A model generated the notes under the pieces. It made no database searches, was not told the DNA's origin, and saw nothing but the letters and a program-made list of their open reading frames with translations. Positions 676-21,782 of a DNA stretch of 61,158 bases are shown here, one piece after another; the stretch's first letter is position 1; each line of letters begins with the position of its first letter. The position numbers and the translations under genes are program-made. This DNA is from Opitutaceae bacterium (GTDB lineage: Bacteria; Verrucomicrobiota; Verrucomicrobiia; Opitutales; Opitutaceae): the NCBI GenBank assembly GCA_035569995.1, contig DATMLS010000045.1:1-61158 (forward strand), written 5' to 3'.

Positions 676-750
676 TGCCCGGTAGCTCAGTGGCAGAGCA
701 GGTGACTGTTAATCACTTGGTCGCTGGTTCGATCCCAGCCCGGGCAGCCA
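676..750 (+). tRNA. tRNA-Asn (anticodon GTT)
   Basis: Cloverleaf folded by hand. Acceptor TGCCCGG/CCGGGCA (U1-A72 as in E. coli tRNA-Asn). D-arm GCTC/GAGC. Anticodon stem GGTGA/TCACT with loop CTGTTAA, giving anticodon GTT. T-arm GCTGG-TTCGATC-CCAGC. Discriminator G, then encoded CCA. Confidence 0.85.
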
Positions 751-753
751 GTC
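705..753 (+). repeat. attL: left copy of the 49-bp direct repeat, covering the anticodon loop to the 3' end of tRNA-Asn plus 3 nt.
   Basis: ACTGTTAATCACTTGGTC[G]CTGGTTCGATCCCAGCCCGGGCAGCCAGTC is repeated at 21734..21782 with a single mismatch (G->A). Confidence 0.8.
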
Positions 754-795
754 AGTGAATGACTTAGGCTGTTTCTGCCTTTTCGGATAGAATCT

Positions 796-819
796 ACATT
801 CCGGTTACATTCCGGTTTT
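796..819 (+). promoter_or_regulatory. tandem ACATTCCGGTT x2 motif just inside the attL end of the island. Candidate arm-type recombinase or RDF binding site.
   Basis: ACATTCCGGTTACATTCCGGTTTT is repeated identically at 21589..21612, next to the integrase start. Confidence 0.45.
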
Positions 820-1021
820 TCGAGTCCTGTCCTGCCCCGCATTTTTCGCACCTTTTGCTGAATTTCGTGCGCAACATTTGGCCAATATTCTGGCTTTCCG
901 CTCTGAAAATCAGGCGTAATGTCGCTGAAAATGCGACAGATAGCATCGGCCAGACGAGCCTTAGTTAACTAAAAGCAACGTTGCATTCATGGACGGGCAA
1001 AAATAAAAATGCCCTTCCAGC

Positions 1022-20149: not shown

Positions 20150-20284
20150 TCTGCTTTATCCCCAGTAACCAGAGCCTTGAGCTTTGCTACTTCAATTCTT
20201 TCGCCAAGGCACGACAATCGTTACTCGCTACCAAGCTGATGTATCTCTTGGCGTGATGCAGTGGCGACCGCAGGCTTTGGGCAA

Positions 20285-21643
20285 TCAGCCCTCGATAGCC
20301 CGCAACTCCGTCCCCAAGGGCAATTGCACTTCGATGCGTTTTTTCTTGTCCACATAGTGCGCCGACGTGGTCCGAATATCCCTGTGCCCGAGGTGTTGGC
20401 GCGCGGCCTCAATCCCAAACGTCGAGGCGATGAGTGAGCCGCTTTCCTTACGCAGCGCGTGGATTGCCTTCACCTGGTGCACGCCTTTCTTTCGCAGCCA
20501 TGCATTAAGATCACGCCACGTGCAATCGCAGCGGTAGTAATCGTAAGTTGCGAACAGGTTGGGTTCCGCGCCGTCCAACACAAATTCCGACGTGCTGCCT
20601 TTTTTGAACGAGCCGAGAACGTTGAGGGCTTCCGGGGCTAGGTCGATATTGCGCTGACTCTCTTCTGTCTTTGGCTCAAAGTAGGGAGTGCGGCGGACGT
20701 GAATCTCTCCCTTTTTGAAGTCGATTTGTTCCCACGTCAGCAAGTCCGCCTCTTTGCGCCGCAATCCTGCCCACAGGCACAGAAAGAGCGCGAGGTATTG
20801 CTGGGGATGCGTCTGCCTCAATTCGAGCGCTGCGCAGGCCAGCAACCATTCAGGGTTGACCTCGGAATGGTAACGCTGCGGGCCGGGGTCTTTTAGCTTC
20901 ACGCCGTCAAACGGATTGGACGGCAGCTTCACCTTGAGCACGCTCACCACGTCCGTCGTAAAGAGGGCACGTGAGCAGCGCAGGTAGGAGGCCGCTGACC
21001 GTTCCGCCGACTTGCGTTTAATTGGGTCGATCCCCGCCTTAGCAACGTAATGGTTGCGCCATGCGTTGACGGTGTCCGGTGTGAGCACGTCCAGCGGCTG
21101 CTTGTCCACCTTGGCAAGCCATGCCTTTCGGCCACCGTTCATGTAATCGTATTTTGCTCGCTTGGCCCGGCCTCTCACCCCGGCTTCCAGCTTGGCCACG
21201 TCAGAGACCATTTTACGCAGCTTTACGGCATACCTGCGCACCGTCATCGGCTTTAGATGGCTGCGGGCCTGCACATCGGCCAGAAATTCGCCCACGGTGC
21301 AAACGTCGGCCTTGTCGGTTGAGCTGGGCTTAAACTTGGCTAGCGTCGCGGCCCAGCCCGCCGAGATGAGTGAAAGGTAAATGTCGCGGGCTTTGATGAT
21401 CGCGATGGACTGGTTGGCCGTGTCGAGACAGAACCACGCTTCGCGGCCCTCGTGAAACATCCTGACGTAATACTCCGGTGGGGTGTATTTCTCCCCGTCC
21501 CGACCTCTGAACGTGCAGCGTTTGATGCGTGCTTTCCAGTAATCCTGATGCGTCTTGGCGGCGCGTGAGACCGGAATGTAGGCATTTGACATTCCGGTTA
21601 CATTCCGGTTTTGGCTGTCCTCAAAAGTTTTCATTTGTCTCAA
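20285..21643 (-). CDS. int: tyrosine-type site-specific recombinase / integrase
   Basis: C-terminal catalytic motif HALRKESGS...LGHRDIRTTSAHYVD (R-H-R-Y family). Adjacent to attR. The start may be the internal Met at ~21592, which would place the ACATTCCGG repeats in its 5' leader. Confidence 0.9.
   Translation of the reverse strand: MRQMKTFEDSQNRNVTGMSNAYIPVSRAAKTHQDYWKARIKRCTFRGRDGEKYTPPEYYVRMFHEGREAWFCLDTANQSIAIIKARDIYLSLISAGWAATLAKFKPSSTDKADVCTVGEFLADVQARSHLKPMTVRRYAVKLRKMVSDVAKLEAGVRGRAKRAKYDYMNGGRKAWLAKVDKQPLDVLTPDTVNAWRNHYVAKAGIDPIKRKSAERSAASYLRCSRALFTTDVVSVLKVKLPSNPFDGVKLKDPGPQRYHSEVNPEWLLACAALELRQTHPQQYLALFLCLWAGLRRKEADLLTWEQIDFKKGEIHVRRTPYFEPKTEESQRNIDLAPEALNVLGSFKKGSTSEFVLDGAEPNLFATYDYYRCDCTWRDLNAWLRKKGVHQVKAIHALRKESGSLIASTFGIEAARQHLGHRDIRTTSAHYVDKKKRIEVQLPLGTELRAIEG
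21571..21612 (+). promoter_or_regulatory. ACATTCCGG repeat cluster at the integrase 5' end: one inverted copy plus two direct copies
   Basis: CCGGAATGTAGG (inverted) is followed by ACATTCCGGTTACATTCCGGTTTT, identical to 796..819 at the other end of the island. Confidence 0.45.
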
Positions 21644-21733
21644 TATTGGGTCAATTTATTCCACTATTTACCTATGAAATCAATCCCATAAGTAGAGGCA
21701 GAAGCAGACACTTGAGGACATGAAAGAACAGGG

Positions 21734-21782
21734 ATACAAAATAACTGTTAATCACTTGGTCACTGGTTCGATCCCAGCCCGG
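21734..21782 (+). repeat. attR: truncated tRNA-Asn 3' half (right copy of the direct repeat)
   Basis: A 49-bp copy of 705..753 with 1 mismatch. It lacks the 5' half of the tRNA, so it is not a functional tRNA gene. Confidence 0.8.

Follow-up and report, generated by a model that had tools for sequence, protein, structure and literature searches.

What lies between an intact tRNA-Asn gene near one end of a 61,158-bp contig and a second, truncated copy of that gene about 21 kb further on, and could this DNA move? The contig, which we analysed whole and call the window, belongs to an NCBI metagenome-assembled genome of an Opitutaceae bacterium, one of the uncultured soil Verrucomicrobiota, and the relatives found through the SPFH gene that flanks the locus are Verrucomicrobiota/Opitutia. 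We consider it likely that positions 754-21792 are a canonical integrative mobilizable element (IME) whose site-specific target was the 3' part of the tRNA-Asn(GTT) gene. IMEs are defined by an integration/excision enzyme of their own, att repeats and an origin of transfer (oriT), with a relaxase added in canonical IMEs, and by having no mating-pore apparatus (PMC5704250). The island encodes an integrase, has a specific target bounded by att sites and carries a relaxase with an oriT; no mating-pore or coupling-protein domain was detected in it, six of its open reading frames (ORFs) being without a family match. A sequence-only reading of this DNA had proposed a tRNA-targeting IME, and we find support for it: the modules are present and look intact, and the arm repeats, the integrase family and the relatives agree with it.

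The tRNA gene itself sets the ends of the island. ARAGORN and Rfam (tRNA, 68.3 bits) agree on an intact tRNA-Asn(GTT), the integration target, at 676-750 (+), where it had first been read. A repeat search finds a 49-nt direct repeat whose left copy, the attL core, spans 705-753 (+), and whose right copy, the attR core, spans 21744-21792 (+) and is the displaced 3' fragment of the tRNA-Asn gene. The copies are 98% identical, lie 21,039 bp apart start to start and differ by a single mismatch (G723 versus A21762); the sequence-only reading had the repeat and its mismatch right and the right copy, given as 21734..21782, 10 bp too low. In the tRNA, the repeat begins with the final base of the anticodon stem, immediately before the loop, and it extends 3 bp beyond the encoded CCA end. 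A 61-nt degenerate junction pattern occurs in the window at the two repeat copies and nowhere else, where chance would give none, and the identical attR junction is found in metagenome contigs from the same population. An intact tRNA and a displaced 3' fragment standing as direct repeats are the signature by which Islander delimits tRNA islands (PMC4383910), and here we see a regenerated tRNA, a displaced fragment in direct orientation and an integrase inside the island adjoining one end. In the standard model, the 3' part of the intact tRNA-Asn was supplied by the island. The GC content of the island is 53.7%, compared with 58.5% for the remainder of the contig, and we count this deviation as support for a foreign origin.

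Two details of the repeats deserve mention in their own right. The mismatch falls at tRNA position 49, which is G in the intact tRNA, where it pairs with C65, and A in the integrase-proximal copy. The same G/A difference recurs between the repeats of a related island, L017 (9845-9899 and 16383-16437), and the integrase-proximal copy in another, L019 (9846-9870), has A; a third, L018, has G. Judged by where the identity block ends, the crossover would lie in the anticodon loop, and a crossover 3' of position 49 would fit better with the recurrent A. Past the repeats, the right-hand flanks (754-800 and 21793-21840) are loosely alike, about 60% over about 50 bp, with a common CAG..AAT.A...AGGCTGTT... 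motif that also lies 3' of the tRNA in two relatives, L031 and L034. From this likeness and the recurrence of the motif, the attP of the island seems to hold a copy of the native sequence downstream of the tRNA.

Is the enzyme that would act at these ends still whole? The tyrosine integrase, next to attR as first read, has 435 amino acids (aa) counted from an ATG at 21592 and is encoded at 20285-21592 (-), with a Pfam Phage_integrase match of 4.6e-11; alternative starts lie at 21634 and 21643 (ORF 20285-21643), and the start is 110-150 bp away from the displaced tRNA fragment. A disrupted int gene had been named beforehand as a finding that would speak against an IME, and what we see is a full-length gene in which R278, K308, H378, R381, H403 and Y413 are invariant among 22 homologues. 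Through a profile of these homologues, the same residues align with the catalytic residues of PDB entry 3nkh, the alignment covering the R, H-x-x-R, H and Y boxes. This entry was the only one returned by a profile search of the PDB (E = 0.0011), and phmmer found no close relative with a solved structure there.

Just inside both ends of the island are copies of an 11-bp repeat, ACATTCCGGTT, found by repeat search: a tandem pair at 796-817 (+) on the P' arm, and a second pair at 21589-21610 (+) on the P arm, which overlaps the 5' end of int, as does an inverted copy with one mismatch at 21569-21579 (-). The window holds six matches to ACATTCCGGTT where 1.0 is expected, a count reached in none of 100 shuffles (0/100), and their position inside both ends makes these repeats candidate arm-type binding sites for the integrase. 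Further in, at 15238-15504 (-), lies a gene for an HTH_17 protein of the MerR superfamily, 88 aa long (75 aa in other gene calls; Pfam HTH_17, 3.8e-8), which also matches PHROG 66, 'excisionase and transcriptional regulator' (1.2e-6). We regard the protein as a candidate recombination directionality factor or regulator. The excisionase-like gene proposed earlier is thus real, on the minus strand, while its AlpA label is not borne out: the Pfam matches are HTH_17, MerR and MerR_1, with Phage_AlpA not among them. Two plus-strand ORFs, 15199-15447 and 15454-15831, were tried as excisionase and MobC genes and set aside, having no family matches; the real genes are on the minus strand.

The integrase has at least 392 homologues at E <= 1e-10, the best 120 of which are 68-85% identical to it (the query's own protein excluded), and the family appears to be specific to Opitutaceae-like bacteria. 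Four related loci were fetched for three of the homologues, and each has a 3' fragment of tRNA-Asn some 130-150 bp upstream of int. L017, 6.5 kb long, is complete as an island: it has a 55-nt repeat, an intact tRNA-Asn at its far end and, at both ends and in matching position, the same ACATTCCGGTT pair as the window. At the corresponding site L018 has two copies of AACCGGACAGT and L019 two to three of AAGTGGCCAAG; because these differ at the same position, the arm repeat seems to vary with the integrase while its place stays fixed. The HTH_17 gene is the sole further gene common to the window and the islands with related integrases (66% identity in L016/L017, 51% in L019). Cargo differs from island to island. 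L018, whose integrase is 77% identical to that of the window, carries XhoI and Eco57I restriction-modification (R-M) genes, a Gabija-like OLD-TOPRIM and UvrD pair and a TrwC (MOBF) relaxase (10001-21386), L017 has ParA-like genes and L019 has R-M genes. Since the modules of L018 differ from those of the window, the int core seems able to combine with different mobilization and defence modules.

Whether the island could also pass between cells depends on a compact mobilization module. Its mobA gene, at 16252-17280 (+; ORF from 16087), encodes a MOBQ-like relaxase of 342 aa (Pfam MobA_MobL 1.6e-26; 93.9 against a cutoff of 26.7) that is 30-44% identical by tblastn to plasmid genes annotated 'MobQ family relaxase', and its best plasmid matches are all annotated MobQ. 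Divergent from mobA, at 15616-15894 (-), is a gene for a 92-aa MobC-like relaxosome accessory protein of the RSF1010 type. This protein aligns with a 107-aa protein of the contig L022 (BLASTP E 1e-7), and the L022 protein in turn aligns with RSF1010 MobC (E 2e-17); we call it MobC-like on this transitive similarity, which its position and size fit. L022 is plasmid-like, with ParA, toxin-antitoxin genes, a TraG-type coupling protein and a relaxase 38% identical to that of the window. The module had been read earlier as MobC-oriT-MobA(MOBQ): the relaxase is indeed MOBQ-like and the oriT fits the consensus, and MobC stands by transitive similarity only. A block of HTH_17, mobC, oriT and mobA recurs in the relative L020, where the nucleotide identity is 85-94% and another gene follows downstream.

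Between the mobC-like gene and mobA lie 357 bp that contain the candidate oriT, at 16044-16099 (-), recognised by an inverted repeat and the MOBQ nick-region consensus. The inverted repeat is 19 nt long, with arms at 16049-16067 and 16081-16099 that are 95% complementary and a DNA fold z of -2.7. The minus strand of the oriT reads ...GTTTGCATAAGTGCGCTCTT, and TAAGTGCGCTCTT at 16044-16056 (-), on the mobC-coding strand, agrees at 12/13 positions with the MOBQ oriT nick-region consensus NWACCNNTAAGTGCGCCCTYNN quoted in PMC3832669. This oriT core is the sole match in the window to TAAGTGCGCCCTY at up to one mismatch. The stretch 16044-16064 (AAGAGCGCACTTATGCAAACT; reverse complement AGTTTGCATAAGTGCGC(T/C)CTT) has 20/21 bases the same as in L022, the single difference being A/G at 16047. 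From the analogy with RSF1010, we predict a nick on the minus strand between 16049 and 16048, 5'-CATAAGTGCG|CTCT-3', within the predicted nick region 5'-GGAGTTTGCATAAGTGCGCTCTTGG-3'. The RSF1010 oriT-mobC sequence used for comparison matched IncQ1/MOBQ plasmids at 100%; its nick-strand sequence is on the mobC-coding strand, as in the island. Because the inverted repeat of the island includes the nick core, the plus strand carries a second nick-like sequence, ACAAGTGCGGCCCT (region 5'-GGAGTTTGCACAAGTGCGGCCCTGC-3'), which we ranked second as a nick site because the conservation in L022 and the RSF1010 strand rule favour the minus strand.

A Pfam search of the island ORFs of at least 80 aa found no VirB4, VirD4, TraG or pilus domain. 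An integrase and an excisionase-like HTH gene beside a tRNA are also the layout of prophages and satellites, so that the island might be a prophage remnant or phage satellite that uses tRNA-Asn and is not conjugatively mobilized. We regard this as extremely improbable, given that a PHROGs scan of ten island proteins gave HTH_17 as the only named match, with no capsid, terminase, primase or packaging genes, and that a relaxase and an oriT are present.

Relatives show what else can occupy this site. GreA and an identical tRNA-Asn are common to L025/L033, L031, L032 and L034 at 91-96% nucleotide identity, and right after the tRNA these loci diverge from the window and from each other, homology stopping at 750-774. 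On the right, homology with L015, the relative with the closest NfeD, begins at 21842, 50 bp past the right repeat. Taken together, the left and right comparisons bracket the insert to 754-21842, in agreement with the repeat-defined 754-21792. In L025 the tRNA is followed by another island, which carries Imm33, AbiEii and PIN genes and the remnant of an unrelated integrase; in L032 it is followed by about 1.1 kb with a truncated, unrelated integrase, beyond which the contig aligns collinearly with window 24062-33413 at 86-93%. Relatives have at least three other unrelated inserts straight after the same tRNA, two of them with integrase remnants of other families, and the GreA/tRNA-Asn locus is clearly an integration hot spot.

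These comparisons also bear on where the element ends. L032 is without window 754-24061 and not merely 754-21792, the 50 bp past the right repeat resemble the island-side flank of attL, and the left flank begins just 675 bp from the contig end. Such features might be expected if the island belonged to a larger unit, composite or in tandem, for instance an integrative and conjugative element (ICE) or an island array, with conjugation genes or the true boundary outside 705-21792. We think this very unlikely. There is no third tRNA-Asn fragment right of 21800, NfeD-SPFH is found in eight relatives at 75-96% amino-acid identity in the manner of a core gene pair, housekeeping genes (L25, Pth) that are collinear with L032 follow from 24062 on, relatives conserve GreA and tRNA-Asn on the left side, and no type IV secretion system (T4SS) domains are seen in the island. 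NfeD-SPFH as a second island was considered and rejected on that same count of tRNA fragments. As for this operon itself (21793-24061, beside attR), it stands in unrelated contexts in the eight other relatives and has no att remnant on its right side; it may be native here or may have come with an older event.

Does the site also exist without the island, or the island as a circle? The exact NfeD protein was shown at eight places in eight samples, seven of which gave DNA, 98.6-100% identical to the window, and these look-ups from the right flank gave only island-bearing or truncated contigs. A scan of genome contigs for SPFH gave eight relatives that have only the NfeD-SPFH pair in common with the window and no tRNA-Asn within 10 kb. 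Approached from the left through GreA homologues, L025 has its other insert, L026 and L027 have other arrangements (tRNA-Phe), and L028-L030 end just after GreA; a 28-nt pre-tRNA pattern was found in L031-L034, including the collinear but not exactly empty L032. The 61-nt pattern, which covers attL, attR, attB and attP, had 0 matches in a metagenome contig collection that is evidently without this population; the same pattern does match the window and five fetched contigs. The comparative search for an empty site that had been proposed at the outset was answered in part: relatives differ right after the tRNA and L032 is without the island, and no exact empty site emerged.

These searches matter most for our main rival explanation, in which the island integrated once and is now fixed and no longer mobile, a vertically inherited piece of defence cargo with genes that are silent or decaying. 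We judge this unlikely. In its favour, neither an empty site nor a circular junction was found, several samples have the island in place wherever their contigs are informative, the repeats have come to differ by one mismatch, and the integrase remnants beside this tRNA in L025 and L032 are evidence that decay does befall elements here. The mismatch need not reflect decay, however, because it recurs in L017, and the contigs from different samples, being 99.9-100% identical, give no time signal. Nothing in the sequence of the island supports decay: each module is of full length, the catalytic residues are invariant as well as intact, the arm repeats at both ends are perfect copies and the oriT core is conserved.

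Several observations weigh against reading the island as a mobile IME. In the collections searched, neither the exact empty site, with tRNA-Asn followed directly by NfeD, nor the attP junction was found, and at five of the eight NfeD places the whole integrase or a piece of it adjoins NfeD, with one further place beginning within attR and two uninformative. L032, which is without the island, is also without NfeD-SPFH, and because of this and its unrelated integrase remnant, the right junction is bracketed and not pinned. On the side of transfer, the relaxase is below the NCBIfam cutoffs (MobQ, 116 bits against 200; TraA_Ti, 128 against 590), the MobQ score being the one that counts against our assignment. 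The 92-aa protein gave no BLASTP alignment with RSF1010 MobC directly and no match in the Pfam and NCBIfam libraries, and a match to the nick-region consensus somewhere in a 61-kb window has an 18% chance of arising at random. Six cargo proteins without any family-library match could hide an unrecognised function, and we know of no helper conjugative element for this organism.

If the island is the IME that we take it to be, how might it move? The integrase would bind core sites within the tRNA as well as the 11-bp repeats of each arm, and would recombine attP with the tRNA gene. The tRNA gene would stay intact because the island brings along a tRNA 3' part of its own, and the displaced tRNA fragment would mark the far end after integration. 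In excision, the two 49-bp repeats would recombine, probably with help from the HTH_17 protein, to yield a circle, whose oriT would be nicked on the minus strand, between their own genes, by MobA (MOBQ) and the MobC-like protein. Since the island encodes neither a coupling protein nor a T4SS, the relaxase-DNA complex would have to leave through those of a co-resident conjugative element, and the island would then re-integrate into the tRNA-Asn of the recipient. We infer from the gene content and the sites described above the excision, the directionality role of HTH_17, the nick position and the mobilization in trans, as well as a defence function for the unannotated genes considered below.

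What would such an element carry? Defence makes up most of the cargo: there is a type I R-M operon interrupted by three AT-richer gene pairs, and in addition RadC, a lipoprotein-like protein and a large ATPase. Pfam matches bear out the type I R-M, nuclease, RadC and ATPase genes that the sequence-only reading had listed, and the GC mosaic that it described is real, with 60% for hsdR, 57-59% for the mob genes and 45-54% for the inserted pairs and the ATPase. The operon has nine genes on the plus strand at 1022-12058 and is tightly packed, with gaps of 0-82 bp and a longest hsdS ORF that overlaps the preceding gene. It encodes HsdR, HsdM and HsdS together, as a type I system does: the restriction subunit gene hsdR at 1022-3817 (+; Pfam EcoEI_R_C 1.7e-37, ResIII 3.8e-35), the specificity subunit gene hsdS at 5240-6514 (+; Methylase_S 5.4e-20, in two stretches) and the methyltransferase subunit gene hsdM at 9019-10488 (+; N6_Mtase 1.6e-68, HsdM_N 3.3e-11). 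The unusual point is the three foreign pairs interleaved among them; an unrelated, AT-richer pair follows each of hsdR, hsdS and hsdM, and the three appear to be separate cassettes inserted into one R-M operon.

The first pair consists of a 194-aa protein at 3853-4437 (+; GC 50.9%) and a predicted nuclease of 278 aa at 4438-5274 (+; Pfam pP_pnuc_1 1.1e-11; PADLOC Aga_Nuclease 3.4e-8). The third consists of a 204-aa protein at 10495-11109 (+), with the lowest GC of the island at 45.4%, and a 302-aa Mrr-type, restriction-endonuclease-like protein at 11150-12058 (+; Mrr_cat 1.9e-5) that matches plasmid genes annotated 'restriction endonuclease' by tblastn. Between them is the second pair, a 438-aa protein at 6521-7837 (+) and its 364-aa partner at 7842-8936 (+), which we consider a candidate for an uncharacterised defence module. 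The two genes, which have no family annotation, are also neighbours on plasmids of Priestia megaterium and Burkholderia glumae, where no R-M operon surrounds them and where the genes after the 438-aa homologues match the 364-aa protein with BLASTP E values of 1e-78 (Priestia) and 6e-49 (Burkholderia). Roseomonas, Komagataeibacter and Streptomyces have homologues of the 438-aa protein as well; its family is rare (313 representatives in 1.84 billion proteins), and a confident AlphaFold model (predicted local distance difference test, pLDDT, 86.4) has four winged-helix domains in tandem. In the partner, residues E25, D43, D45 and D63-C-K65 are invariant among three sequences only, a motif that, read by eye, makes a PD-(D/E)xK-like nuclease possible; its single-sequence AlphaFold model was unusable (pLDDT 38.9).

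Downstream of the operon are a RadC-like JAB-domain protein at 12456-12908 (+; Pfam RadC 1.4e-40) and a 654-aa protein at 13150-15114 (+) whose hydrophobic N-terminus looks lipoprotein-like when read by eye. On the far side of the mobilization module, at 17306-20077 (-; ORF to 20149), is a P-loop ATPase of 923 aa (Pfam AAA_16 3.1e-6). Its P-loop domain is N-terminal, its C-terminal half has a Rossmann-like GAGRLGLG motif (by eye), and it scores 64 bits with the NCBIfam Sll1717 family, whose cutoff is 75; it is about 24% identical to plasmid genes, one of which is annotated as containing a SEFIR domain. With a GC content of 47.2% it is the AT-richest large gene, and it is missing from the related mob block of L020. 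The 194-aa, 204-aa and 654-aa proteins have no match in Pfam, PADLOC, NCBIfam or PHROGs, and the unannotated cargo together gives essentially nothing in PADLOC, NCBIfam and PHROGs. Compared as a whole with plasmids by megablast, the island has only a 227-bp match, in hsdM.

Some further observations concern other loci. In L008, at 19942-20443, a homologue of the island RadC (57% identity) directly adjoins a tRNA-Tyr gene, and this may be another tRNA-associated island. In the remainder of the window, interspersed repeats of about 30 nt (GTCATTCCGAGC...GGAATC type) occur in both orientations at 28014-28047, 28224-28254 and 41215-41249, and also in L032; they look like repetitive extragenic palindromic (REP) or miniature inverted-repeat transposable element (MITE)-like elements. 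A 79-nt direct repeat at 58512-58590 and 59016-59094, whose copies are 92% identical with a spacing of 504 bp, is probably a sign of paralogous genes in tandem.

Having placed the island among the IMEs, why should it matter? It is a well-preserved but ordinary kind of element, and it changes no concept. IMEs are thought to be very common and are rarely delimited precisely, and here the att core, the arm repeats and the oriT are all located. The integrase family is abundant in soil Opitutaceae and repeatedly brings defence genes to the same tRNA-Asn hot spot, so that the island offers a specific model, open to test, of the movement of anti-phage genes within an uncultured lineage from soil, and a candidate tRNA-Asn-specific integrase and att pair that might serve as a genetic tool. 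It is tempting to go further and to speculate that the island is one of a large, undescribed family of tRNA-Asn-specific Opitutaceae elements that act as interchangeable defence shuttles, with a core of int and HTH_17, arm sites that co-evolve with the integrase, and swappable mobilization (MOBQ here, TrwC/MOBF in L018) and defence cargo, and that 6521-8936 is a new anti-phage system, which plasmids of Bacillota, Proteobacteria and Actinomycetota also carry and which has here become part of a type I R-M operon. As a joint claim we find this doubtful, and we offer it tentatively.

How does the island compare with systems that are already known? Asn tRNA genes are familiar as island sites in Enterobacteriaceae, where they hold the Yersinia high-pathogenicity island (HPI) and ICEKp1. 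With the tRNA islands delimited by Islander (PMC4383910), the island shares a tyrosine integrase, a regenerated tRNA with a displaced fragment, and the use of one tRNA by different elements; it differs in that its integrase is without a close relative of solved structure. It also resembles canonical IMEs that encode a relaxase and lack a T4SS (Guedon et al. 2017, PMC5704250), for example the MobQ-type IMESp2907. In common with these, it has a tyrosine-recombinase module, its own relaxase (here MobQ-like) with a putative accessory factor and an oriT, and adaptive cargo, and mating-pore and coupling-protein genes are absent. It differs from them in its host among the Verrucomicrobiota, its tRNA-Asn target and its cargo, which is a defence operon, and its transfer is a prediction. 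That review lists canonical IMEs from Bacteroidetes, Firmicutes and Actinobacteria, and the word Verrucomicrobia does not occur in it.

The transfer module on its own can be compared with that of the IncQ plasmid RSF1010/R1162. Both have an oriT between mobA and a divergent gene, mobC in the plasmid and mobC-like in the island, the relaxase is MOBQ in the plasmid and MOBQ-like in the island, and in both an inverted repeat is followed by a nick core on the mobC-coding strand (TAAGTGCGCTCT in the island, TAAGTGCGCCCT in RSF1010). The island relaxase, in contrast, has 342 aa without a fused primase and is 30-44% identical to plasmid MobQ proteins, no mobB is seen, the similarity of MobC is transitive only, and the 19-nt inverted repeat exceeds that of RSF1010 in length and takes in the nick core. 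The two also differ in lifestyle, since the island integrates whereas RSF1010 replicates as a plasmid. A last comparison is with Salmonella genomic island 1 (SGI1) and the mobilizable genomic islands (MGIs) of Vibrio, which are relaxase-less and borrow the relaxase of their helper through an oriT mimic. Like them, the island is integrated, would be excised by its own integrase and would depend on the conjugation apparatus of a helper; unlike them, it has a relaxase and a MobC-like accessory protein of its own.

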